From IMG/VR virus record IMGVR_UViG_2711768060_000012, positions 1 to 9,363 of that record: a stretch of DNA of 9,363 nucleotides; one strand, given 5' to 3'. Each line of letters begins with the position of its first letter. Positions within the stretch are counted from its first letter, which is position 1. Position numbers and translations under genes: made by a program. The notes beneath the pieces are model-generated. The model had not been told where the DNA came from. It saw nothing but the letters and a program-made list of their open reading frames with translations, and made no database searches. Of this stretch, positions 1-9,363 are shown piece by piece. Origin of the DNA: a virus. Taxonomy: Duplodnaviria; Heunggongvirae; Uroviricota; Caudoviricetes.

Positions 1-1218
1 ATGAACAAACTGAGCGACACATTGTTAAGAAAACTTCATGGTAAGCCGGCGGAGAAAAATACGTTTTATAGTGATGGCGGAAATCTGAGCGTGAAATATT
101 TAACATCAGGGAAATTGACCTGGTATTTCACTTACAGGGCAGGAACGGGAAGAGGTACGCCACCGGAACGCCTGAAGCTGGGAAATTATCCTGATCTGAG
201 CCTGAAAGCAGCCAGGGAAAAAGCAGCACTGTGTCGCGCATGGCTGGCAGAGGGAAAAAATCCACGCCATGAGCTTAATTACTCCATACAGGAAGCACTA
301 AAGCCGGTAACGGTAGGCGATGCGATCAGCTACTGGCTGGAAATGCACGTAAAGGAAAACCGTGTCGATTACGTATGCCTGAAAAGCCGCCTTAATAATC
401 ACGTCATACAGCACATCGGCAATATGCCACTGGATAAATGCGAGTTACGTCACTGGCTGGCCTGTTTTGACCGGATACGCAAAAAATCACCCGTAACATC
501 TGGCCACATGATGCAGGCGTGCAAACAGGCGCTTAAGTTCTGCCGTAAACGTCGCTACGCAGTCAGTAACGTTCTGGATGATCTCAACGTGGTGGACGTT
601 GGCAAAAAGCCGGGCATAAGCGAACGCGTGCTTAGTAACAAAGAACTGGGCGAATTATTACAGGCGCTGGATAAAAAAATATTCCCGCCCTACTACAGCG
701 CACTAATCCGCCTCCTGATTGTGTTCGGCTGCCGGACCGGAGAACTGAGACTGTCGGAGATCAGGGAGTGGGATTTTAAGGAAATGCTCTGGACAGTACC
801 GAAGGAGCACAGCAAAACGAAGGTCGCCATATTCAGGCCAATACCGGAAAGCATTTTACCGTTCGTCACACAGCTGGTGGAGCAGAACCGACACACAGGG
901 CTATTACTCGGGGAACTGAAACAGGAAGCCAGCGTGTCGCAATACGGCAGATTCACGCACAAAAAATTAAACCATCCGCACTGGTCACTACACGATATAC
1001 GGCGCACGTTTACCACGATGCTGAACGATTTAGGCGTGGATCCGCATATTGTCGAGCAGCTTACCGCTCACCAGATGCCAGGGATGCAGCGAGTCTATAA
1101 CCACTCACGCTATATTGATGCGAAACGTAACGCGCTGGATATGTGGACAGAGCGATTAGAGATACTGGCGGGTGCTCACGAAAACGTAACCACACTGCCA
1201 ATAGCCAGAGAAATATAA
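1..1218 (+). CDS. int: Tyrosine site-specific integrase, P4-type
   Basis: 405-aa ORF. N-terminus (KLTWYFTYRAG...LKLGNYPDLSLKAAREKA) and C-terminus (HDIRRTFTTMLNDLGVDPHIVEQLTAHQ...VYNHSRY) match the P4/CP4-57 integrase pattern, including the HxxR and catalytic Tyr region. Confidence 0.9.
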   Translation: MNKLSDTLLRKLHGKPAEKNTFYSDGGNLSVKYLTSGKLTWYFTYRAGTGRGTPPERLKLGNYPDLSLKAAREKAALCRAWLAEGKNPRHELNYSIQEALKPVTVGDAISYWLEMHVKENRVDYVCLKSRLNNHVIQHIGNMPLDKCELRHWLACFDRIRKKSPVTSGHMMQACKQALKFCRKRRYAVSNVLDDLNVVDVGKKPGISERVLSNKELGELLQALDKKIFPPYYSALIRLLIVFGCRTGELRLSEIREWDFKEMLWTVPKEHSKTKVAIFRPIPESILPFVTQLVEQNRHTGLLLGELKQEASVSQYGRFTHKKLNHPHWSLHDIRRTFTTMLNDLGVDPHIVEQLTAHQMPGMQRVYNHSRYIDAKRNALDMWTERLEILAGAHENVTTLPIAREI

Positions 1219-1783: not shown

Positions 1784-1924
1784 TCAGACTGGCGGCATAC
1801 AGCCGCCCCCCATCCACTAACACAGAGATTTAACCATGAAGGCTGGATATACGCCCGAACAGGGGCGGGGGTTCGCTCGTCCTGGTGAAACTAAAAAGCC
1901 ATGTTATCGGGTATTTTCAGGCAT

Positions 1925-1952
1925 AAAAAAAGCGGCCCCGATAAGGAGCCGC
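1925..1952 (-). terminator. Intrinsic terminator, minus-strand oriented
   Basis: On the minus strand GCGGCUCC-UUAUC-GGGGCCGC forms an 8-bp stem (one G-U) followed by U7. The + strand version has a C/A mismatch and no U tract. Confidence 0.55.
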
Positions 1953-1996
1953 CTTTCTGAACAATTAACCTGCTGCACAAAAAATAAATATGAGCA
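1926..1996 (-). ncRNA. Candidate small RNA (~70 nt) between an extended -10 promoter and an intrinsic terminator
   Basis: Minus-strand TGaTATAAT (complement of + 2002-2010), then about 70 nt of U-rich sequence with a CUGCU/AGCAG hairpin, ending in the 1925-1952 terminator. No ORF with an RBS in the interval. Prediction only. Confidence 0.3.
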
Positions 1997-2001
1997 GTGG
2001 G

Positions 2002-2010
2002 ATTATATCA
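2002..2010 (-). promoter_or_regulatory. Extended -10 promoter element (TGnTATAAT) on the minus strand
   Basis: + strand ATTATATCA is the reverse complement of TGATATAAT. The -35 is weak (TTGTGG at non-optimal spacing). Confidence 0.35.
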
Positions 2011-2045
2011 GCCAGGTGACGAAGCGCCACAATTGCCGGATAACA

Positions 2046-2076
2046 GGCAAAACAAAGGCCACCCGCTACGGTGGCC
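2046..2076 (-). terminator. Intrinsic terminator for the leftward RHH-like gene
   Basis: Minus-strand GGCCACC-GUAGCG-GGUGGCC (7-bp stem) followed by UUUGUUUU, about 100 nt downstream of the stop at 2180. Confidence 0.55.
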
Positions 2077-2179
2077 CCTCGACACAAGCTACACGTTATC
2101 CACAACGCAAGAGAGCTGATTACTATGCCGTGATTACATCCGGTTGGCAATGTGATCAGTGTGCTGGCTTGCTGGTGGG

Positions 2180-2359
2180 CTATTCCTGCTCTTTGGCCTT
2201 GCGCCGCTGGCGGCGTTTGATCTCACCACGCATGGCTGTAACGATAAACTGCGCGTCTGTTTCGTTTTCCTCTTTGACCAAATTCATTTCGCTTAAAACT
2301 TCTAGAGGGATTCTAGCCGTTTTTTGTTGTGATTTGTTGTTGGTTGTACCCGTTGGCAT
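2180..2359 (-). CDS. Small basic DNA-binding protein, possibly ribbon-helix-helix fold (59 aa); candidate island regulator
   Basis: Internal ATG (complement of 2357-2359) of track ORF 2180-2536, preceded by a perfect SD AAGGAGG with 6-nt spacer. Product MPTGTTNNKSQQKTARIPLEVLSEMNLVKEENETDAQFIVTAMRGEIKRRQRRKAKEQE has a beta-strand/helix/helix layout and a basic tail. Candidate -10 TATACT at complement of 2391-2396. Confidence 0.55.
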   Translation of the reverse strand: MPTGTTNNKSQQKTARIPLEVLSEMNLVKEENETDAQFIVTAMRGEIKRRQRRKAKEQE

Positions 2360-2400
2360 TACTGGCCTCCTTACTGTTAGGTGGCGTTCAGTATACGTAG

Positions 2401-2471
2401 AAAAAAAAATAAAAAAAGGCTTGAAGTGCAAGTCACCTAAAAGTAGCATAACCTTTAAAGGTGACTTGCAC
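2401..2471. promoter_or_regulatory. A9TA7 tract plus 13-bp perfect inverted repeat (GTGCAAGTCACCT ... AGGTGACTTGCAC, arms 2426-2438 and 2459-2471); operator and/or minus-strand terminator
   Basis: Arms are exact reverse complements separated by 20 bp that contain the palindrome CCTTTAAAGG. On the minus strand the hairpin is followed by a long U tract. On the + strand it overlaps a candidate promoter (-35 TTGAAG 2421-2426, -10 TAGCAT 2444-2449) for the rightward operon. Confidence 0.5.
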
Positions 2472-2552
2472 CTTAAAGACAAAGCCCCGCAAGTGTCGTT
2501 ACCACTCGCAGGGCTTCTAACCACCAACGATAGCAAGATTATCGAGGCAGCT

Positions 2553-2756
2553 ATGAGAAATCATACCACACACCCGCAAGGGCGGGACTCGCACAACCTG
2601 AATAAATACATCTGGCGTTTTATCGCCCTGAGCACGGCACAACCGCGCGTGATTACCATTGAGGCCACCAGCGAACAGGAAGCACGCCAGCAATCCCCGG
2701 CTGGCTGCGTGATGGTATTCGCCGCCCGTATTCGTCAGGAGGTGCGCCATGATTAA
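2553..2756 (+). CDS. Small protein resembling Icd-like host cell division inhibitor family (67 aa)
   Basis: Last 67 codons of track ORF 1836-2756. ATG at 2553 is preceded by GAGG (2544-2547). KYIWRFIALSTAQPRVITIEATSEQEARQ...VFAARIRQ matches my recollection of Icd-like proteins in P4-like islands. The upstream part of the 306-aa ORF looks non-coding. Confidence 0.55.
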   Translation: MRNHTTHPQGRDSHNLNKYIWRFIALSTAQPRVITIEATSEQEARQQSPAGCVMVFAARIRQEVRHD

Positions 2757-2961
2757 TCTGTCACTTACCGACCTTAACCGCGTTCAGTTTCGTGAGAAAT
2801 TCACCGGGCAGCTACTGGTCAATGTGGAGAATGGACGCGTGGTGTGTAATTACCACCTGCCAGATGAATCAATTGTCGCAACAAGGGAATCATTACAGGA
2901 ACTCGCAGAACATGCCGGAATGATTAACGCGAATATTCAGGGGGTGCGCCATGTGCAATAA
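2749..2961 (+). CDS. Hypothetical protein (70 aa)
   Basis: ATG at 2749 is preceded by AGGAGG (2737-2742) and overlaps the upstream stop (translational coupling). No family recognised. Confidence 0.6.
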   Translation: MINLSLTDLNRVQFREKFTGQLLVNVENGRVVCNYHLPDESIVATRESLQELAEHAGMINANIQGVRHVQ

Positions 2962-3418
2962 CACCCATCCGGACGCAGCCGCCGAAGCTATCAAAACACT
3001 GATTGATGCGCTGATTGATATTTCTGTTATCGCGGACAGGGCGCATAAGCACGCCACCAGCGAAACAGAATATGCCGGGGCTTTCGTTCCTCACTCACTG
3101 GCTGTTATGCAGCTTAGCGCCGATATGGCGCTGAATGGGGCTAAAGCAATCCTGATTGCTGATTGTGAAAATGGGGGGGGGGTTATGCGTGATGATCGTT
3201 TTAATGCCCTGAAACAGGAATTTGATGGCGCACCGGAAGATACAGATATTGCGCTGTTATGTGTTGCTGACATGGTAAAAGCTGCATGTTTTTTACTGGA
3301 AACCGCCGAACATTCAGGAACGGGTAGCGATATTCTCAATATTGCGTCGGACTATGCGGAATATGTGGCAGAGGCACGTTACAGAAGAAAATTACCGGAG
3401 GATGTAAGCCATGGATAA
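2951..3418 (+). CDS. Hypothetical acidic protein (155 aa, about 26 D/E versus 12 K/R) containing an in-frame G10 tract
   Basis: ATG at 2951 overlaps the upstream stop. Coherent protein-like sequence on both sides of the G10 run at 3173-3182 (encodes ENGGGV). No family recognised. Confidence 0.65.
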   Translation: MCNNTHPDAAAEAIKTLIDALIDISVIADRAHKHATSETEYAGAFVPHSLAVMQLSADMALNGAKAILIADCENGGGVMRDDRFNALKQEFDGAPEDTDIALLCVADMVKAACFLLETAEHSGTGSDILNIASDYAEYVAEARYRRKLPEDVSHG

Positions 3419-3619
3419 AATCCCTTTCGATGTTCTTATTCATTCTGAGAATGCATTAATCAGGGCGCTTGAATTAAAAACGGTACTGGATGAATTAACC
3501 GAAAATAACACCGAGCGGGGGGGTATTTACTTTCTGCTTTCAGCACTCTGTTAACCCCGGTTATTGATGAATTAAACGCGGTTATGGAAATGCACGACAA
3601 GACCCGCGCAGAGGAATAA
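3411..3619 (+). pseudogene. Small gene (69 codons if corrected) interrupted by a frameshift at a G7 tract (3517-3523)
   Basis: ATG at 3411 with GGAGGA (3397-3402) opens MDKIPFDVLIHSENALIRALELKTVLDELTENNTERGG..., which stops at 3555. The -1/+2 frame opens right after a stop at 3506-3508 and continues YLLSAFSTLLTPVIDELNAVMEMHDKTRAEE to a stop at 3617-3619, just before the next gene. One extra G would fuse the two frames. Confidence 0.45.
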
Positions 3620-3624
3620 AAACC

Positions 3625-3924
3625 ATGAAAAAGAAAATTTCTGGCTTTACTGCCAGCGGCCCCGCTCGGCCTGAAATCCGCCCCGGCGATATTTTCCGGG
3701 ATAACTACGGCGGCACGGTAACGATTAAAAGCGTGGCGGGACGGTGCGTTACTTACCGCCGTGATGGGTACGGCTATGACTGCGTGATGCCTGTTTATCA
3801 GTTCCGGCGTGATTTTTCGCTGGTACAGGCCACACCACGCAGACAGCCCACCAGCAACGCAAAGGCACGGGCAAATATTCAGAAAATGAAAAACATGATT
3901 AACGCATTCAGGGGCACAAAATGA
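3625..3924 (+). CDS. Hypothetical small protein (99 aa), possibly a DUF4222-like prophage protein
   Basis: ATG at 3625 is preceded by GAGGAA. Stop overlaps the helicase start (ATGA at 3921). The IRPGDIFRDNYGGTVTIKSV...RDGYGYDCVMPV motif is tentatively recalled from small prophage proteins. Confidence 0.6.
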   Translation: MKKKISGFTASGPARPEIRPGDIFRDNYGGTVTIKSVAGRCVTYRRDGYGYDCVMPVYQFRRDFSLVQATPRRQPTSNAKARANIQKMKNMINAFRGTK

Positions 3925-5336
3925 AACTGGCACCGAACTTAAAAAAACAGCCACACGACAAAATGACCGAAGTCATTATTTTTGCGGGTAGTGATGCCTG
4001 GGCGCACGCGAAACAATGGCAGGAACAGGACGGGCGACTTGCTGGCGACAACGTGCCACCTGTATGGCTTGGAGACAGCCAGCTTGACGAACTGGCAGAC
4101 CTGAAAATCATCGATGATGGTCGCTATTGTGTCCGGCTGTACAAGGCAGGCCACATCAAGCCGTCAAATATTAATGCCATCGGGCAAAAGCTGGCGGCGG
4201 CAGGTGTACGGGATGCGAATTATTACCCTGAGGGAATGCACAGCCAGAAGCTGGAGAACTGGCACGACTACCTGCAACGGATCCGCGAACAGACAGAGCG
4301 CGGGGAAATACTTACTGACGAGCAATACAGCCAGCGAAAAACCACGCTACCAATGAGCATTGGATCTGCAGGGTACGACACACAGCTTGATTATGTCGTT
4401 AAGGGCGTGATTCCGGCTAATTCATTGTGCAGCACATACGGCGCGAGCGGTTCCTATAAATCGTTCCTCGCGTGTTCCTGGGCGTGTCATGTTGCCACGG
4501 GTCGCCACTGGGGAGGCCGCAGGGTGGCGCATGGTTCGGTGATGTATGTTGTCGGTGAAGGTGGCATTGGTGTCCCCCGCCGTATCAAAGCATGGGAAAT
4601 CGTTAATGATGAACGGGTGGAAAATCTGTACTTGGTAAACCGCCCGATTTTTCCGGCAGTTCCGCTTGATGTCGATGAAATGGTCATCGCTTCCCGCCAG
4701 GTTGAACGGGAAACGGGTAAACCGGTACGCATGATTATTCTGGATACGCTGGCGCGTTGCTTTGGCGGTAATGATGAAAATGACGCGCGGGATATGGGGG
4801 CGTTTATCCGTGGATGTGACGAACTGAAGCGACGCACAGGGGCCACGGTACTGGTGGTTCACCATTCCGGCAAGGATGAAACAAAGGGGGCGCGTGGTTC
4901 CAGTGCATTTCGTGCATCTCTGGACGCTGAATACCGTATTCGCCGGGAAGGTGCAGACAGTGAAGCCCTGGTTATCTCCTGTACCAAAATGAAGGACGCG
5001 GAGGAACTTAAAGAGGCTGCATACGATTTACGCGTGGTGGAGCTTTTTACCGACGCTGACAAGGAGTTAATCACGTCGCTGGTGGTTGTGGATAAGCCGC
5101 GCCCACCTGTTGAACTGGAACGCATCGAGGAAGCCGGGAACAAGACGGAGAATCATGCCGCGCTATGGGGCTGTATCCGTTCACGCACACAGCGCAGCGA
5201 TAAATGCACTATCCCGTTGTTGCGCGATGATATGAAAAAGCTGGGGTATGAGATGAAAAACTTCCGGCGCTGGCTGTACAAGCTGGAAAGAGACGGCGTT
5301 ATCGCTATTGACGGTGATGATGTGCGCCCACTGTAA
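3921..5336 (+). CDS. Replication protein: RepA-like / AAA_25 RecA-fold helicase with an N-terminal domain of unknown type
   Basis: 471-aa ORF. P-loop-like GASGSYKS (4440-4463), Walker B-like VRMIILDTLARCFGG, and LVVHHSGKD typical of RepA/DnaB-type helicases. Followed by an iteron array. Confidence 0.8.
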   Translation: MKLAPNLKKQPHDKMTEVIIFAGSDAWAHAKQWQEQDGRLAGDNVPPVWLGDSQLDELADLKIIDDGRYCVRLYKAGHIKPSNINAIGQKLAAAGVRDANYYPEGMHSQKLENWHDYLQRIREQTERGEILTDEQYSQRKTTLPMSIGSAGYDTQLDYVVKGVIPANSLCSTYGASGSYKSFLACSWACHVATGRHWGGRRVAHGSVMYVVGEGGIGVPRRIKAWEIVNDERVENLYLVNRPIFPAVPLDVDEMVIASRQVERETGKPVRMIILDTLARCFGGNDENDARDMGAFIRGCDELKRRTGATVLVVHHSGKDETKGARGSSAFRASLDAEYRIRREGADSEALVISCTKMKDAEELKEAAYDLRVVELFTDADKELITSLVVVDKPRPPVELERIEEAGNKTENHAALWGCIRSRTQRSDKCTIPLLRDDMKKLGYEMKNFRRWLYKLERDGVIAIDGDDVRPL

Positions 5337-5535
5337 AAAGTGAGGCGCAAAAGTGAGGGGATAGCAGGAACTGAACAAAAAGCAACCGCACCCCTCACTT
5401 TTCAACCTGTATATAGGCTCAAAAGTGAGGAATAAAAAACACATTGAAAAACAACATATTAGAATCACAAAAAAACAATGTTGGAAATCATGTGGGGAGC
5501 TTAAAAAGTGAGGTGAAAAAGTGGGGAATAGTGAG
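5336..5535. repeat. Iteron array, likely replication origin: AAAAGTGAGG repeated 5-6 times with an AT-rich core
   Basis: AAAAGTGAGG at 5336-5345, 5349-5358, 5421-5430 and 5504-5513; degenerate copy 5517-5526; inverted copy CCTCACTTTT at 5393-5402. AT-rich stretch 5431-5490. Directly downstream of the helicase gene. Confidence 0.6.
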
Positions 5536-5537
5536 AA

Positions 5538-5789
5538 ATGACCAGAAAAACCAGAGATAAGACAGCGCCAAAATATCGCGCATTAGACATGACAGAGCAC
5601 GCCTTAAAGGTGGCAATCAGAACGATAGACCGCCATGCCGGAGAAGGATACGCGAAAGCACATCCCGAACTGATAAGCGCATTCATGACCACAGCGGCGG
5701 CAAACTTTGCCACGCTGACAGAGCGGGAGATTGCGGAAGCGGAACAGGTGACAACCATCAACGTTAAAACCGGAGAGCAGACAGCATGA
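5538..5789 (+). CDS. Hypothetical protein (83 aa)
   Basis: ORF with a weak RBS. Stop overlaps the SSB start (ATGA at 5786), suggesting coupling. No family recognised. Confidence 0.5.
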   Translation: MTRKTRDKTAPKYRALDMTEHALKVAIRTIDRHAGEGYAKAHPELISAFMTTAAANFATLTEREIAEAEQVTTINVKTGEQTA

Positions 5790-6208
5790 CAGCACAGATA
5801 GCGGCTTACGGTCGGCTGGTGGCTGACCCTCAGTTAAAGACCACCAGCAAAGGGACACAAATGGCGATGGCGAGTATGGCGGTTCCCCTGCCGTGCAGCC
5901 AGGCAGATGACGGAACGGCGACGATGTGGTTATCCGTCCTGGCGTTTGGCAGACAGGCCGACGCACTGGCAAAACACCACAAAGGCGAACTGGTGAGCGT
6001 GGCGGGTAACATGCAGGTAAGCCAGTGGACAGGCCAGAACGGCGAAGCGCGGCAGGGCTGGCAGGTTATCGCAGACAGCGTAATCAGTGCGCGAACGGTG
6101 CGACCGGGCGGCAAAAAAGGCCAGCAGGGCCAGGCTACTGACGCACTGAACAGGGCAAAACAACAGGCGGGAAATGATGATCCGTACGGGGATAACATAC
6201 CGTTTTAA
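5786..6208 (+). CDS. ssb: Single-stranded DNA-binding protein (SSB, OB-fold)
   Basis: 140 aa. N-terminal OB-fold-like region, Gly/Gln-rich linker (GGKKGQQGQ) and acidic C-terminal tip ...DDPYGDNIPF, resembling the SSB DDDIPF tail. Confidence 0.8.
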   Translation: MTAQIAAYGRLVADPQLKTTSKGTQMAMASMAVPLPCSQADDGTATMWLSVLAFGRQADALAKHHKGELVSVAGNMQVSQWTGQNGEARQGWQVIADSVISARTVRPGGKKGQQGQATDALNRAKQQAGNDDPYGDNIPF

Positions 6209-6224
6209 GCAACGAGTGACAGAA

Positions 6225-6248
6225 GCCGGGGTTTTTCCCGGTTTTTTT
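6225..6248 (+). terminator. Intrinsic terminator after ssb
   Basis: CCGGG-GTTTTT-CCCGG hairpin (6226-6241) followed by T7 (6242-6248). Confidence 0.6.
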
Positions 6249-6295
6249 ATGGGTCCTTCCTGAAAAATGGAACACCGGGGGGATGCGGACGCGCA
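6242..6295 (+). repeat. 54-bp direct repeat, copy 1 (TTTTTTTATGGGTCCTTCCTGAAAAATGGAACACCGGGGGGATGCGGACGCGCA)
   Basis: Identical to 8713-8766. Starts at the T tract of the ssb terminator. Confidence 0.9.
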
Positions 6296-6476
6296 GAAAA
6301 CGGCTGGTTTTTGCATTTTCATGGTGGCGGCAGCATGTGTGATAATTAATTGATAATTAAAAATTATTTCTGTTTTCACCTGTACAATCTTTTTTCTCCC
6401 CCTGTCATCAGACCAGTTTGCAATTAATTGAAATATATAAACAAATTTGTTTTTCACCTGCCAAATGGAGCTGCCT

Positions 6477-6572
6477 ATGTCAAATGTGATTGGGATTGGT
6501 GATGCTTATCACTGGCACACAAAAATGAATATTGCATATTTTGCAATGCAATTGATCATCATTGCATTTTGA
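6477..6572 (+). CDS. Candidate 31-codon small ORF / leader peptide (MSNVIGIGDAYHWHTKMNIAYFAMQLIIIAF)
   Basis: ATG at 6477 is preceded by GGAG (6467-6470). Hydrophobic C-terminus. Overlaps the dyad-rich control region and could equally be non-coding. Confidence 0.2.
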   Translation: MSNVIGIGDAYHWHTKMNIAYFAMQLIIIAF

Positions 6573-6616
6573 TCAACACTGCACACTTCAAATATCAGTC
6601 TGAAACGAGGTGTTAC

Positions 6617-6820
6617 GTGAACGAAAAGAAAGCTGTATCGGTTTATCTCGACAATGAAACGGCGCTTGCCCTGTACCGTTTGCGCGAAGATATTCGCAAG
6701 AAAAATGCAGAAACGGGAATGGATCTTCCCACGCCAACAGTCGGCTGGCTTGCCCGTTCATTGTTGCGTCAAAGCCTGGGAATTAAGGCAGACAAAAAAG
6801 ATTTGCCTCATGAGGGGTAA
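6617..6820 (+). CDS. Small ribbon-helix-helix-like protein (67 aa) upstream of the capsid gene
   Basis: GTG at 6617 is preceded by GAGG (6607-6610) inside track ORF 6569-6820. KAVSVYLDNETALALYRLREDIRKK fits the RHH pattern of a beta-strand followed by a helix. Confidence 0.5.
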   Translation: MNEKKAVSVYLDNETALALYRLREDIRKKNAETGMDLPTPTVGWLARSLLRQSLGIKADKKDLPHEG

Positions 6821-6825
6821 GGTTG

Positions 6826-8667
6826 ATGGAAATTTCATTGTATGAGCCAATCGAAGGCGTAACCGCAAGACAGTTCCGCGATTCACTTATGGCTGCAAAA
6901 GGCCCGGTTACGGTTGCCATAAACAGCGGTGGCGGAAATGTAACTGACGGCATGGCGATGTTTAACGCCCTGAGAACGTACAAAGGCCACACGGTCGCAA
7001 GAATCGACGGTATCGCCGCATCAATGGCTACCATTGTTGCGCTCGGTGCCCGGCGTGTCGTGATGGCTGATAACGGCTGGTGGATGATCCATAACCCGTG
7101 GGGCGTTTTTGTTGGTGAATCGGAAGATCTCCGCAAAAAAGCCGACATGATGGAAAAAATCGGCAAGGCAATGCTTGATACCTACGTTGCCAAAACCGGA
7201 TTACCGGAATCAGAAATCAAAGCCATGATGGATGCTGAAACATGGCTGACGGCTGAGGAAGCGAAAGAAAAAGGATTTATTGATGAAATTTATCCGGCAG
7301 AGGGACAGGCATTAGCCATGGCCCCTGGTTGCGGATCACTGGTAGAGAAATTTACCAGAACGCCGGAAAGCATCATCGCATCGATGAAGAAAGGCGACAC
7401 GGGATCAGCAAACGAAAGAGAGAAGCGAAAAAAAGAAGCCGACGTTTTGTTTGCTTACTGGAAGAATTCTTCGTATGAGTGGTTGCCAGGAATTGTTGAA
7501 GAATTTATCAGCGGTTCCATCACTGCCGAAGAAGCACGTAAAAAACACTTAGAAAAACTGGCGGAAGAGACAACGCCGTGCGCAGGACCAGGAGCAATGA
7601 ACATGTATGCAGGTAACGGTAATATTGTTGGGGATTCAGTAAAAGCGGCGCTTATGGCACGCAGTGGACTGGCAGATGTGGAAAAAGATAACCGCTATAA
7701 CGGTTATTCATTGCGGGAACTGGCGCGCGCTTCTCTGGTGGATCGTGGGGTAAGCGGCATTCCCGGTAATCCGCTGGGCATGGTCGGAATGGCGTTTACT
7801 CACAGCAGTAGTGATTTTGGCGGCGTTCTTGCGGATGTGGCGCATAAATCATTACTGAAAGGCTGGGAAGATTCACCGGAGACGTTCCACGCCTGGACGA
7901 AAAAAGGCACTCTGACAGATTTTAAGGTTGCCCATCGTGTTGGTATGGATGGTTTTAAATCTTTGCGAAAAGTTTTACCAGGCAGTGAATACAAATACGC
8001 GTCCACGTCCGATCGCAGCGAGCCAATTGCACTGGCAACTTATGGCGAACTGTTCAGCATAGATCGCCAGGCAATCATCAATGACGATATGAGTGCGCTA
8101 ACTTCAATCCCCCAGCAAATGGGGGCAGCAGCAAGCCGCACAGTCGGAGATCTGGTTTATGCCGTTCTCGTGGCTAATCAGAGGATGGGCGATAAAAACC
8201 CGCTCTTTGATGCGAAACACAGCAATCTGATTAACAGCGAACTTGATATTCCAGGCCTGAGCGCAGCCCGTAAAGCTATGCGTATGCAAAAAAATAATGC
8301 TGGTGCTGTACTGAATATTCCGCCTCGTTTCCTGTTAGTTCCGGTAGAACTGGAAGACAGAGCAACCCAGCTTATTCGTTCTACGTCGCTACCAGACGCG
8401 CAGAACAGCGGTGTGTTTAATCCATACAATGATGCTCTGACAGTAATCACAGAAGCGCGGCTGGATGCCGACAGCGTGAAATCCTGGTATCTGCTTGCTG
8501 GTCAGGGAAGTGATACAATCGAAGTCGCTTATCTCGATGGTATTGATACCCCGTACCTGGAACAGCAGCAGGGCTTTACGGTTGATGGCGTTACTTTCAA
8601 AGTGCGCATTGATGCCGGAGTTTCTCCCCTGGACTGGCGCGGGATGGTTAAGTCATCAGGTGGCTAA
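6826..8667 (+). CDS. Prohead protease (ClpP/S14-like) fused to major capsid protein (HK97-fold)
   Basis: N-terminus AINSGGGNVTDGMAMFNALRTYKGHTVARIDGIAASMATIVALGARRVVMADNGWWMIHNPWG has ClpP-like Ser/His motifs. The long C-terminal domain resembles HK97-family capsid proteins. ATG at 6826; the track start at 6823 is TTG. Confidence 0.8.
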   Translation: MEISLYEPIEGVTARQFRDSLMAAKGPVTVAINSGGGNVTDGMAMFNALRTYKGHTVARIDGIAASMATIVALGARRVVMADNGWWMIHNPWGVFVGESEDLRKKADMMEKIGKAMLDTYVAKTGLPESEIKAMMDAETWLTAEEAKEKGFIDEIYPAEGQALAMAPGCGSLVEKFTRTPESIIASMKKGDTGSANEREKRKKEADVLFAYWKNSSYEWLPGIVEEFISGSITAEEARKKHLEKLAEETTPCAGPGAMNMYAGNGNIVGDSVKAALMARSGLADVEKDNRYNGYSLRELARASLVDRGVSGIPGNPLGMVGMAFTHSSSDFGGVLADVAHKSLLKGWEDSPETFHAWTKKGTLTDFKVAHRVGMDGFKSLRKVLPGSEYKYASTSDRSEPIALATYGELFSIDRQAIINDDMSALTSIPQQMGAAASRTVGDLVYAVLVANQRMGDKNPLFDAKHSNLINSELDIPGLSAARKAMRMQKNNAGAVLNIPPRFLLVPVELEDRATQLIRSTSLPDAQNSGVFNPYNDALTVITEARLDADSVKSWYLLAGQGSDTIEVAYLDGIDTPYLEQQQGFTVDGVTFKVRIDAGVSPLDWRGMVKSSGG

Positions 8668-8688
8668 TACACAATCAGGCATGTTATG

Positions 8689-8720
8689 TTTTTTTTGCGG
8701 CCTTCGGGCCGCTTTTTTTA
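8689..8720. terminator. Bidirectional intrinsic terminator after the capsid gene
   Basis: T8 - GCGGCC-TTCG-GGCCGC - T7: perfect 6-bp GC stem with a tetraloop, flanked by T tracts on both sides. Confidence 0.65.
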
Positions 8721-8766
8721 TGGGTCCTTCCTGAAAAATGGAACACCGGGGGGATGCGGACGCGCA
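8713..8766 (+). repeat. 54-bp direct repeat, copy 2
   Basis: Perfect match to 6242-6295. Starts at the T tract of the capsid terminator. Confidence 0.9.
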
Positions 8767-8880
8767 TAAATCGAGAGATTTTTGATATTTTATGCGTGCA
8801 GCAGCATAAGTTTAATGCTTTGATTTTTAACATTATTGATTTGTTTTGTTGAAAAAGCGACCGTGCAGTGAGGTGGTAAA

Positions 8881-9363
8881 GTGGAACTGAGCAAAATGCA
8901 GGTTAATGTCTCACAATTGGCAGACCTGGTAGGCATGAATCGAAATCTTGTTTCACGCCGTTTGCGTGAGCTGGAGCTTGTTGGCGGGAATGGTGAGAAT
9001 CTTAAATTGTATGAACTCGGTCCGGCACTTCAGGCACTACTGACCCCATCAATGAAAGAAAATGGTGAAATGTCACCACAGGATCGGAAAGCCTGGTATC
9101 AGTCAGAAAATGAAAGGCTGAAATTTGAAGCAGCTTCACGTGAATTACTCCCTGTCGAAGAGGTGGCCCGTGAATATTCATCTCTGGCTAAAGCCGTGGT
9201 CATGGTGCTGGAAACGTTACCGGATATTCTTGAGCGCGATTGCGCTCTCCAGCCTTCTGCAGTCATGCGAGTACAACGCATTATTGATGATCTACGTGAT
9301 GAAATGGCGAGAAAGATAGCAGAAAGCGATTCAGATAATGGCTGGCCTGCATGTGCAAGATGA
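8881..9363 (+). CDS. Terminase small subunit, lambda Nu1-like
   Basis: MQVNVSQLADLVGMNRNLVSRRLRELEL...NLKLYELGPALQAL parallels the Nu1 N-terminal wHTH (VNKKQLADIFGASIRTIQNWQEQGMP...NEVLYDSAAVIKWY). Start is either GTG 8881 (GAGGTGG upstream) or ATG 8896. Stop coincides with the window end. Confidence 0.75.
   Translation: MELSKMQVNVSQLADLVGMNRNLVSRRLRELELVGGNGENLKLYELGPALQALLTPSMKENGEMSPQDRKAWYQSENERLKFEAASRELLPVEEVAREYSSLAKAVVMVLETLPDILERDCALQPSAVMRVQRIIDDLRDEMARKIAESDSDNGWPACAR

Follow-up and report, generated by a model that had tools for sequence, protein, structure and literature searches.

The published core set of PICIs comprises an integrase, a regulator, a pri-rep gene, a capsid-morphogenesis gene and terS (PMC10085698), and capsid genes are reported for 21 of 29 reference Gram-negative PICIs (10.1101/2022.07.18.500453). 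PICI origins sit directly 3' of the rep gene (PMC6092414). EcCICFT073 carries a capsid gene, a decoration gene and two cosN copies and is packaged in phage-sized heads; deletion of its capsid or decoration gene left interference and transfer unchanged (PMC6092414). It is the only tested relative of the island described here. EcCICFT073, EcCIDi14 and EcCIED1a have an int-alpA-small genes-rep-ori-ssb backbone in about 10 kb, a late zone 3' of the origin with a capsid homologue and a packaging-specificity gene, a duplicated cos, and no tail, lysis, portal or TerL genes. The late zones of EcCICFT073 and EcCIDi14 encode a lambda-E-type MCP and a decoration protein with Rpp or another TerS type (TerS in EcCIDi14), and that of the E. 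coli PI7-type PICI encodes a ClpP/MCP fusion, a DUF1441 protein and a small ORF. Capsid-forming PICIs (cf-PICIs) such as EcCIEDL933 have the same int, alpA and rep types as classical E. coli PICIs and their own MCP, protease and TerS, lack tail genes, and add portal, head-tail connectors, HNH and TerL in about 15 kb. In an unrelated Gram-positive lineage, an MCP homologue (Ccm of SaPIbov5) and the SaPI TerS homologue are used against cos or pac helpers, according to passages in PMC6092414 and PMC6739421. Helper-embedded satellites, which like PI7 carry a ClpP/MCP fusion and DUF1441, have been described at the site C:CLP_protease:110 (10.1101/2022.07.18.500453); the satellites L054 and L072 lie inside a prophage fusion gene at about residue 87-100, each with its own full-length copy of that gene.

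The window, the whole 9,363-nucleotide stretch of DNA that was analysed, is nearly the whole of an island of 10.06 kb from attL to attR, inserted in the E. coli yifB/comM gene. Gene calls on the source contig (L002) run from a yifB fragment through the island to the remainder of yifB. A 16-bp att core lies at both island ends (15/16 identical), with attL just upstream of the integrase, and the flanking DNA matches E. coli at 100% identity. Downstream of terS there is about 0.5 kb of non-coding DNA before the island ends in yifB/comM, and on both sides host genes lie no further than about 0.5 kb from the outermost genes of the island. All five classical PICI core components are present, with the integrase at one end, a co-oriented AlpA, RepA with a putative origin, a capsid homologue and TerS (Table 1). 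The island also falls in the size range of the class (about 10-15 kb) and has no other phage structural or lysis genes. It is an ordinary classical PICI and no new kind of element. The window very probably represents nearly all of a classical Gram-negative PICI that has captured a late module and depends on a helper.

Table 1. Features of the window, with coordinates, strand and the evidence for each.
Feature	Position	Strand	Evidence
Tyrosine integrase	1..1218	+	Pfam Arm-DNA-bind_3, Phage_integrase, Phage_int_M
AlpA-family regulator/excisionase, 62 aa	1595..1783	+	Pfam Phage_AlpA (E 1.5e-17); L002 gene call
Run of small satellite genes	2553..3554	+	PHROG matches, L002 gene calls, annotated homologues in E. 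coli PICIs
DUF4222 protein; its gene overlaps the 5' end of the replication gene	3625..3924	+	Pfam DUF4222 (E 1.2e-24)
RepA-family replicative helicase (satellite replication gene)	3921..5336	+	Pfam AAA_25 (E 3.5e-44)
Putative replication origin	5334..5526	.	Direct repeat family D3
Single-stranded DNA-binding protein (SSB)	5786..6208	+	Pfam SSB (E 7e-16)
cos1, first cos-like repeat copy	6238..6336	+	99-nt direct repeat D1
67-aa ORF directly upstream of the capsid gene	6617..6820	+	L002 gene call
ClpP-like protease/spacer/major capsid polyprotein	6826..8667	+	Pfam, PHROG, NCBIfam
Intrinsic-terminator-like hairpin 3' of the capsid gene	8697..8712	+	GCGGCCTTCGGGCCGC then T-run
cos2, second cos-like repeat copy	8709..8807	+	99-nt direct repeat D1
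DUF1441-type small terminase subunit (TerS)	8881..9363	+	Pfam DUF1441, PHROG 141 and 57, predicted fold

The int-alpA-rep arrangement named in the original prediction is confirmed, with an SSB gene in addition. Homology signals for these genes, the polyprotein and TerS are strong, and chance ORFs do not account for them. The integrase gene call on the source contig begins 12 nt upstream of the window; its product has 95% amino acid identity to that of E. coli PICIs, and the RepA helicase has 99% identity to their 'helicase RepA family protein'. The run of small genes consists of a PHROG 6196 'transcriptional repressor'/Icd-like gene (2553-2756) followed by genes of 70, 155 and 47 aa. Two copies of an iteron-like repeat, TAAAAAGTGAGG(N)AAAAGTGRGG, lie directly 3' of rep (5334-5358 and 5502-5526, corresponding to 8509-8533 and 8677-8701 on the source contig at an offset of 3175), and they form a putative replication origin. 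A hairpin with a T-run was read in the sequence 3' of ssb (about 6225-6248). The int-alpA-rep-ssb backbone has about 93% DNA identity to E. coli PICIs such as EcCIDi14, and the int-to-ssb part is matched in 2193 of 5426 complete E. coli genomes, at 93-94% identity among the best matches listed. Positions 6500-9363 have no megablast match in those complete genomes, so this variant of the late module is absent from them at >=85% DNA identity; protein clusters at 98-99% identity exist in E. coli and Salmonella. Backbone, size, late zone 3' of the origin, duplicated cos and missing gene classes are as in EcCICFT073, EcCIDi14 and EcCIED1a, whereas the yifB/comM integration site sets the island apart from all three, and its polyprotein and DUF1441 TerS differ from the lambda-E-type modules of EcCICFT073 and EcCIDi14. 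PI7 (L001) shares the fusion and DUF1441 pairing, but at 46% identity for the fusion and 42% for TerS, and both proteins of the island belong to a different, deeper satellite clade. Pfam and PHROG scans of the window ORFs found none of the P4-type families (Sid, Psu, Delta, Ash and the alpha primase-helicase).

According to the source-contig gene calls, ssb is followed only by a pair of small ORFs, the fusion gene and terS. The 67-aa ORF of this zone is kept in related satellites, with a homologue upstream of the capsid gene in one of them (L011), and has a weak PHROG 3255 match; a ribbon-helix-helix-like regulator is a guess at its identity. A 99-nt repeat is duplicated so that one cos copy stands ahead of each late unit. 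Its 24-nt core, ACACCGGGGGGATGCGGACGCGCA, lies at 6272-6295 in cos1 and at 8743-8766 in cos2. The right flank of cos1 is phage-like (GAAAACGGCTGGTTTTTGCATTTTCAT) and resembles the region upstream of DUF1441 terS genes in phages and prophages. The left 58 nt of cos2 are near-identical to cos1 and its right flank has diverged; cos2 lies about 115 nt upstream of terS, the position that cos occupies in phages. Assignment of cosN is putative and follows from position and similarity to lambda-type cos. The 24-nt core is identical in the E. coli prophage L091, where it lies about 100 nt upstream of terS, and this identity points to L091-type prophages as a candidate helper type. In other satellites the core varies between elements, and a fuzzy search for it found only one satellite (L012) and Chris1/L014-type phages to be close.

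Both late proteins are found in phages with the order terS-terL-W-portal-fusion-decoration-tail, namely in mEp460, Chris1, L091 and 65 prophage loci. The fusion and terS derive from phages ordered cos-terS-terL-W-portal-fusion (mEp460, Gifsy-2-like and Chris1). The late zone probably consists of two cos-headed units taken from the head and packaging module of phages with lambda-like heads: cos1 with a small ORF and the protease-scaffold-capsid polyprotein forms the first unit, and cos2 with a DUF1441 (Nu1-like) TerS the second. The presumed donor lineage includes mEp460, Gifsy-2-like phages, cdtI, Chris1 and E. coli prophages such as that of strain WGI31CT. Like the head modules of mEp460, Gifsy-2, cdtI and Chris1, the island has a DUF1441 TerS, an NF045540 polyprotein and a cos-like sequence upstream of terS. 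Unlike them, it keeps the fusion and terS only, in reversed order and each behind its own cos, with a shorter spacer in the polyprotein and a diverged DNA-binding domain in TerS.

The original prediction had included a Nu1-like TerS in the interval of the capsid fusion. The family assignment stands, but the gene lies further downstream, behind cos2. TerS is full length at 160 aa (phage TerS median 161), matches DUF1441 (E 2e-39) and PHROG 141 and 57 'terminase small subunit', and is 49-60% identical to the annotated TerS of mEp460, Chris1, Hafnia phage yong2 and prophage L091. Its predicted structure has a Nu1-like winged helix-turn-helix N-terminus and a helical C-terminal part. Foldseek matches of the N-terminus are best to TerS DNA-binding domains, including lambda gpNu1 (1J9I), with weak E-values (0.09-0.36) and very high match probabilities. 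Compared with phage TerS, the C-terminal part is 62% identical and the DNA-binding domain 31%, whereas phage-phage pairs with equally similar C-terminal parts have DNA-binding domains that are about 50% identical. An unusually diverged DNA-binding domain on a conserved C-terminal part thus appears, at the level of sequence, to be a modest new point. A literature search found 'DUF1441' in three papers only, all on phage genomes.

The same features bear on whether this protein acts as a stand-alone TerS. It could instead behave like Rpp and form a heterodimer with helper TerS that blocks recognition of the helper cos and is retargeted to the satellite cos. Mixed oligomers with helper TerS could form through the conserved C-terminal part, the acidic C-terminal tail of nearly all phage copies is missing, and the cos-then-gene layout equals the cos-rpp layout of EcCICFT073 (PMC9026076). 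Its length, however, is that of phage TerS, and Rpps are shorter (135-154 aa). RppC (6HLK) ranks only 17th in the Foldseek list for the N-terminus, with a low match probability, and no similarity to RppC was found among PDB sequences by phmmer or with a 29-sequence profile (E<=1, E<=10); an Rpp identity of the protein was rejected on this basis. The TerS of EcCIDi14 (L007) has no RppC match either, so these siblings use TerS homologues and not Rpp. An Rpp-like function is a tentative alternative that we regard as somewhat unlikely, and a satellite TerS working with helper TerL is the preferred reading.

The ClpP-like protease fused to a capsid protein is borne out by Pfam, PHROG and NF045540 profile matches. 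The polyprotein is encoded from ATG 6826 to the stop codon at 8665-8667 (613 aa; the ORF list starts it one codon earlier, at TTG 6823). Its three parts are the ClpP-like prohead protease at aa 1-160 (nt 6826-7305), a scaffold-like helical spacer at aa ~161-260 (nt 7306-7605) and the major capsid protein at aa ~261-613 (nt 7606-8664). Pfam matches are CLP_protease at residues 4-157 (E 2e-30), Phage_capsid_4 at residues 301-611 (E 2e-54) and Mu-like gpT (E 2e-11). The full length matches the NCBIfam model NF045540 ('ClpP-like prohead protease/major capsid protein fusion protein') with 741 bits against a cut-off of 475, and the PHROG matches are 133 (head maturation protease) and 4523 ('major head and protease protein'). 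Matches to ClpP structures cover aa 22-170. The polyprotein has both ClpP catalytic residues, Ser (AASM, S66) and His (MIH, H89), which are invariant in 83/83 aligned homologues. In the AlphaFold model the protease domain has pLDDT ~90 and the spacer is helical at 167-247; the capsid part has pLDDT <50, so the HK97 fold named in the original prediction agrees with the family matches and gains no independent support from the model. The fusion had also been described as a less common arrangement, which is contradicted by the 2831 scored candidates that reached E<=1e-20 and by 553 loci confirmed in species-representative genomes. A large phage lineage has this fusion as its standard head gene, and NCBIfam has a model dedicated to it. 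Nothing on fusions appears in the phage D3 scaffold paper.

The polyprotein gene is maintained under purifying selection, since the protease and MCP parts have a dN of 0.10-0.15 where dS is saturated (dN/dS about 0.04-0.08, ratios that are rough with dS >2 or not computable). The spacer evolves about four times faster than the flanking domains. In one MAFFT alignment, with satellite or phage context assigned by tblastn, the protease-to-MCP spacer is 167-175 aa in 16/17 satellites and 183-216 aa in 66/66 phage copies; the exception, satellite L024, has a spacer of phage length. Satellite copies fall in two separate clades. These comparisons suggest, as another modest new point, that satellite polyproteins are old lineages of their own under purifying selection, with a consistently shorter spacer.

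Such conservation could mean that the polyprotein replaces that of the helper on the helper portal to build satellite-sized shells of smaller T-number, with the shortened spacer setting the size and nothing but portal, TerL, adaptor and tail coming from the helper. Such an element would stand between classical and capsid-forming PICIs. All three shell-building functions, an intact catalytic dyad and strong purifying selection would agree with this, as would the fast-evolving spacer and its shortening in two independent satellite clades. Precedents appear in passages of PMC6092414, where Ccm of SaPIbov5 makes small capsids and PmCI172 combines an MCP homologue with small heads; SaPIbov5 Ccm, though, has no protease or scaffold fusion, and the function of the island protein is predicted only. 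The dispensable capsid gene and phage-sized heads of EcCICFT073 argue against such a provider role, and the shorter spacer could reflect loss of a low-complexity Pro/Ala/Gln linker with no effect on size. We consider this reading unlikely. It is equally doubtful that polyprotein satellites form a distinct functional grade in which shell and packaging specificity are satellite-encoded and motor, portal, connector and tail are helper-encoded; in such a grade the polyprotein would suffice to form the small shells on the helper portal, and the TerS with its diverged DNA-binding domain would fill them by way of helper TerL.

Gene content decides how far the island depends on a helper. Homologues of TerL, portal, tail and sheath were found neither by tblastn nor by gene calls between attL and attR on the source contig, and decoration and lysis genes are absent from the island. 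The query that found no TerL on the contig finds TerL in phage-type loci down to 23-25% identity, and a portal, also missing from the contig, gives matches of 51-99% identity in every phage-type locus. There is no coding room for a head-tail adaptor/connector or HNH, and no W-like match was found on the contig. With host genes at both ends and no TerL, portal, adaptor, tail or lysis genes, the island is therefore a satellite. The original call of a satellite thus survives the search for a complete phage downstream, because the island ends inside yifB/comM with no tail or lysis genes. The further step in that prediction, to a capsid-forming satellite, fails. A PICI that builds its own capsids, packages itself and steals only tails could be suspected from the self-contained protease-scaffold-MCP polyprotein and TerS, and from int, alpA and rep genes common to cf-PICIs and classical E. 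coli PICIs. The class-defining portal, TerL, head-tail adaptor/connector and HNH are, however, absent, and the island is 10.06 kb against 15.4 kb for EcCIEDL933. The gene inventory rules out cf-PICI membership, and this alternative is highly improbable. Nor does a capsid gene separate the island from classical PICIs, which the original prediction had taken to rely on helper capsids, as that gene belongs to their published core set and is carried by most reference Gram-negative elements. The island sits in a chromosomal gene, in contrast to the helper-embedded satellites, which sit in a prophage. A decaying prophage remnant that happens to keep a capsid gene and terS, both of phage origin, is scarcely credible for a precise att-bounded 10-kb unit with its own integrase, AlpA, RepA and origin, in which the order differs from that of phages (fusion before terS and no genes between them), cos is duplicated, and ORFs are intact and under purifying selection (neither frameshifts or random truncations in relatives nor a dN/dS near 1 is seen). 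Elements of the same architecture but with different replication modules also occur in Enterobacterales, Pseudomonas, Halomonas and Oceanisphaera, which speaks against a remnant as well.

Without TerL, portal, adaptor, decoration, tail and lysis genes, a classical PICI of this kind therefore needs a helper phage of the donor lineage. For its induction, helper identity, packaging and particle composition, we infer the following course from characterised PICIs as analogues. A helper would activate alpA, and the island would excise and replicate with the RepA and origin that it carries. The satellite TerS, with its diverged DNA-binding domain, would bind next to the satellite cos, while its phage-like C-terminal part may contact TerL, oligomerise, or both. 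In this way it could bring helper TerL to a cosN identical to that of the helper, and satellite concatemers would be cut and packaged. The satellite polyprotein may take part in building the procapsid on the helper portal, either by itself or together with the helper polyprotein, and would give no autonomy in head formation. Most likely it is a capsid-morphogenesis/interference factor that changes the size of the capsid or poisons the assembly of helper heads; because the EcCICFT073 capsid gene is dispensable and its heads are phage-sized, the capsid-size role is put forward as a proposal only.

The island is a documented case of enterobacterial PICIs swapping their late module to suit another helper head type. 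The head type matched here is that of the DUF1441-TerS/ClpP-MCP-polyprotein phages, among them Stx-, cdt- and Gifsy-type prophages. The analysis points to a concrete candidate helper and a candidate cos site, and the satellite-specific short spacer and diverged TerS DNA-binding domain bear on the role of PICI capsid genes.

The source contig of the island (L002, NCBI GCA_001269325.1) encodes an identical polyprotein, and its flanks have 100% identity to E. coli. A 59-aa yifB/comM fragment lies upstream of int, the remainder of yifB begins ~480 bp past the terS stop, and both junctions carry ATTAT[C/A]AATAGCGGAT. The island is 10.06 kb long, and only its two ends are missing from the window. 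TerL, portal, gpW-like adaptor, decoration, tail and lysis genes are all absent from the attL–attR interval of L002. Because no complete phage follows terS and the island ends close to that gene, within yifB, the element is a satellite rather than an ordinary prophage, as originally predicted. The further proposal of a capsid-forming satellite unlike classical phage-inducible chromosomal islands (PICIs) does not hold. Integrase, regulator, primase-replicase, a capsid-morphogenesis gene and terS are the five core PICI components, and head–tail adaptor, connector and terL set capsid-forming PICIs (cf-PICIs) apart (PMC10085698); all five core components are present here and none of those specific to cf-PICIs, so the element is a textbook PICI, not a cf-PICI. 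Of 29 reference Gram-negative PICIs, 21 carry capsid genes (10.1101/2022.07.18.500453). EcCICFT073 has capsid and decoration protein genes and two cosN copies (PMC6092414). The cf-PICIs, such as EcCIEDL933 (15.4 kb), have portal, connectors, HNH and TerL in addition (10.1101/2022.09.08.507074).

The int-to-ssb backbone is matched in 2193 of 5426 complete E. coli genomes, with 93–94% identity among the best matches listed. Strain PI7 has the same backbone followed by a ClpP/MCP (major capsid protein) fusion (46% identical), a DUF1441 protein (42%), a small ORF and host smrA; in clone D i14 the backbone is followed by MCP, decoration protein, a hypothetical protein and TerS, and the island is flanked by IS110 fragments, in agreement with published EcCIDi14. 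Outside the window, L002 has four GTGAC repeats ~10–11 bp apart downstream of terS (12600–12660) and a 59-nt imperfect repeat (…CGGTGTAGT..NTGGTGTAGTCA…) near each island end (3083–3141 and 12906–12964) that probably holds integrase arm-type sites.

Genes of the co-oriented set and other features are listed in the table; no tRNA occurs in the window. A 306-aa ORF at 1836–2756 (+) is probably spurious; gene calls on the source contig place there a 59-aa gene (2180–2359, −; PHROG 949) and a 67-aa gene (2553–2756, +; PHROG 6196 'transcriptional repressor', Icd-like in E. coli annotations). The satellite probably replicates from an origin formed by two iteron-like repeats, TAAAAAGTGAGG...AAAAGTGRGG, the first of which begins at the rep stop codon. 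The 3.2 kb from 6100 to 9363 contain 0 sigma-70-like promoter matches, compared with 4.9 ± 2.4 in shuffled sequences, which hints weakly at late expression via an activator or read-through.

Features of the window and of two loci with embedded satellites
Feature	Coordinates	Remark
Integrase	1-1218	co-oriented set
AlpA	1595-1783	co-oriented set
Several small genes		between AlpA and DUF4222 gene
DUF4222 gene	3625-3924	co-oriented set
RepA-type AAA_25 helicase	3921-5336	co-oriented set
Iteron-like repeats	5334-5358, 5502-5526	probable origin
83-aa ORF		between helicase and SSB genes
SSB	5786-6208	co-oriented set
Putative cos1	6238-6336	after ssb terminator
67-aa ORF	6617-6820	co-oriented set
Polyprotein, 613-aa ORF	6826-8667	co-oriented set
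Protease part	6826-7305	
MCP part	7606-8664	
Putative cos2	8709-8807	after capsid-gene terminator
TerS, 160-aa ORF	8881-9363	co-oriented set
L054 (Rahnella), embedded satellite and split fusion	1642-1941 / 9001-10887 / 13082-14740	
L072 (Kluyvera), embedded satellite and split fusion	2212-2520 / 9001-10857 / 13443-15098	

The predicted fusion of a ClpP-like protease to a capsid protein is borne out by Pfam matches to CLP_protease (residues 4–157, E 2e-30) and Phage_capsid_4 (residues 301–611, E 2e-54) and by NCBIfam NF045540 'ClpP-like prohead protease/major capsid protein fusion protein' (741 bits, cut-off 475); Mu-like gpT is a further Pfam match, and PHROGs 133 and 4523 are also matched. 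Residues 22–170 align to solved ClpP structures, and the AASM serine and MIH histidine are present in the window polyprotein and in 83/83 aligned homologues. An AlphaFold model gives a protease pLDDT of about 90 and a helical spacer (167–247); it fails for the capsid part, whose putative HK97 fold is predicted from family matches.

The closest phage relatives of the polyprotein and TerS (46–58% identity) are mEp460, mEp043, mEp213, Hafnia phage yong2, Citrobacter phage Chris1 and Stx2-converting phages, which share the gene order terS(DUF1441)-terL-adaptor-portal-fusion-decoration-tail. Within this lineage the polyprotein is a standard head gene, not the less common arrangement that had been supposed. 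In a scan of species-representative genomes, 65 of 80 loci have the phage gene order; the other 15 are without portal and TerL, and their fusion gene is preceded by an integrase gene and a replication gene, the latter encoding a D5-type primase-helicase, RepA AAA_25 helicase or GPA-type initiator in Pfam-checked satellite-type loci. At two loci (L054 and L072) a satellite with its own complete copy lies inside a prophage fusion gene at ~residue 87–100; these correspond to 'helper-embedded satellites' at site C:CLP_protease:110 (10.1101/2022.07.18.500453).

A neighbour-joining tree of 83 polyproteins (17 satellite, 66 phage copies) splits satellite copies into two clades, one deep, in which the window groups with Rosenbergiella, Tenebrionibacter, Scandinavium, Halomonas, Pseudomonas and Oceanisphaera relatives, and one, including PI7, inside enterobacterial phages. 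The catalytic His and the AGNGN motif lie 167–175 residues apart in 16/17 satellite copies and 183–216 apart in 66/66 phage copies; the segment missing from satellite spacers is a Pro/Ala/Gln-rich linker. For the satellite copies closest to that of the window, dN values are 0.10–0.15 for the protease and MCP parts and about 0.40 for the spacer. Overall dN/dS, which is only roughly 0.04–0.08 with dS saturated, is low, so the gene is maintained in satellites and not decaying. The MCP part has ~65% identity to proteins of Chris1-type (contractile-tail) phages, the protease part is far less similar to them, and the whole polyprotein has ~50% identity to other phage copies, which suggests a mosaic history. 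In the closest relative (L011, Rosenbergiella; polyprotein 79% identical), a 567-aa ORF (10875–12578) after the capsid gene replaces the DUF1441 terS. A 205–211-aa ORF lies 3′ of the polyprotein gene in several satellite loci, namely L061 (11353–11976), L062 (11471–12106) and L079 (11322–11939); it may be an additional packaging-specificity gene, and Pfam scans of the L061 and L062 copies gave no match.

TerS matches Pfam DUF1441 (E 2e-39) and PHROGs 141 and 57 'terminase small subunit'. AlphaFold modelling of TerS from 29 homologues (mean pLDDT 81) predicts a winged helix-turn-helix at the N-terminus and long helices after it. In a Foldseek comparison with the PDB, the top hits are TerS DNA-binding domains (7LWR, 7LW0, 7LXS), the phage TerS chain of an RppC complex (6HN7_B) and lambda gpNu1 (1J9I), with probabilities of 0.92–0.99 over ~50 residues and E-values of only 0.09–0.36; these matches, weak by E-value, make the predicted 'Nu1-like' label reasonable. 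TerS is 160 aa long against a phage median of 161; residues 62–150 have a median 62% identity to phage TerS and the DNA-binding domain (residues 1–58) 31%, compared with ~50% for DNA-binding domains of phage–phage pairs with equally similar C-terminal parts. Nearly all phage copies have an acidic C-terminal tail that the window TerS lacks. These features are consistent with a packaging protein that would keep its protein contacts and read a different DNA site, and are compatible both with an autonomous satellite TerS and with a partner of helper TerS like Rpp, the PICI proteins that redirect phage packaging; sequence searches with the window TerS found no relation to RppC.

A 99-nt direct repeat is interpreted from its sequence as two putative cos copies. 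The copies are 85% identical overall, with near-identical left 58 nt and divergent right flanks. The cos1 right flank, GAAAACGGCTGGTTTTTGCATTTTCAT, matches a stretch that many phages and prophages conserve 100–130 nt before DUF1441 terS; the cos2 flank is diverged. In the putative cos, a G-rich core precedes CGCG and a T-rich tract, an arrangement similar to lambda cosN and its right flank. The 24-nt core, ACACCGGGGGGATGCGGACGCGCA, recurs without mismatch in a complete prophage of E. coli WGI31CT, where it precedes the DUF1441 terS-terL-W-portal-fusion genes by ~100 nt; the prophage TerS is 60% and the prophage fusion 51% identical to those of the window, and prophages of this type are candidate helpers.

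In the most likely mechanism, modelled on characterised PICIs (PMC6092414, PMC6739421, PMC9026076), a helper of the DUF1441/fusion type would activate alpA, after which the island would excise and replicate. Island TerS would bind beside the satellite cos and deliver helper TerL to a cosN matching that of the helper, and the polyprotein would take part in building procapsids on the helper portal, acting in capsid morphogenesis or interference. Of PICI capsid genes, only c1499 of EcCICFT073 has been tested; it is dispensable, and EcCICFT073 is packaged in phage-sized heads (PMC6092414). The satellite-specific short spacer is compatible with a capsid-size role for the polyprotein. That short spacer and the diverged TerS DNA-binding domain are two modest comparative observations on these satellites.
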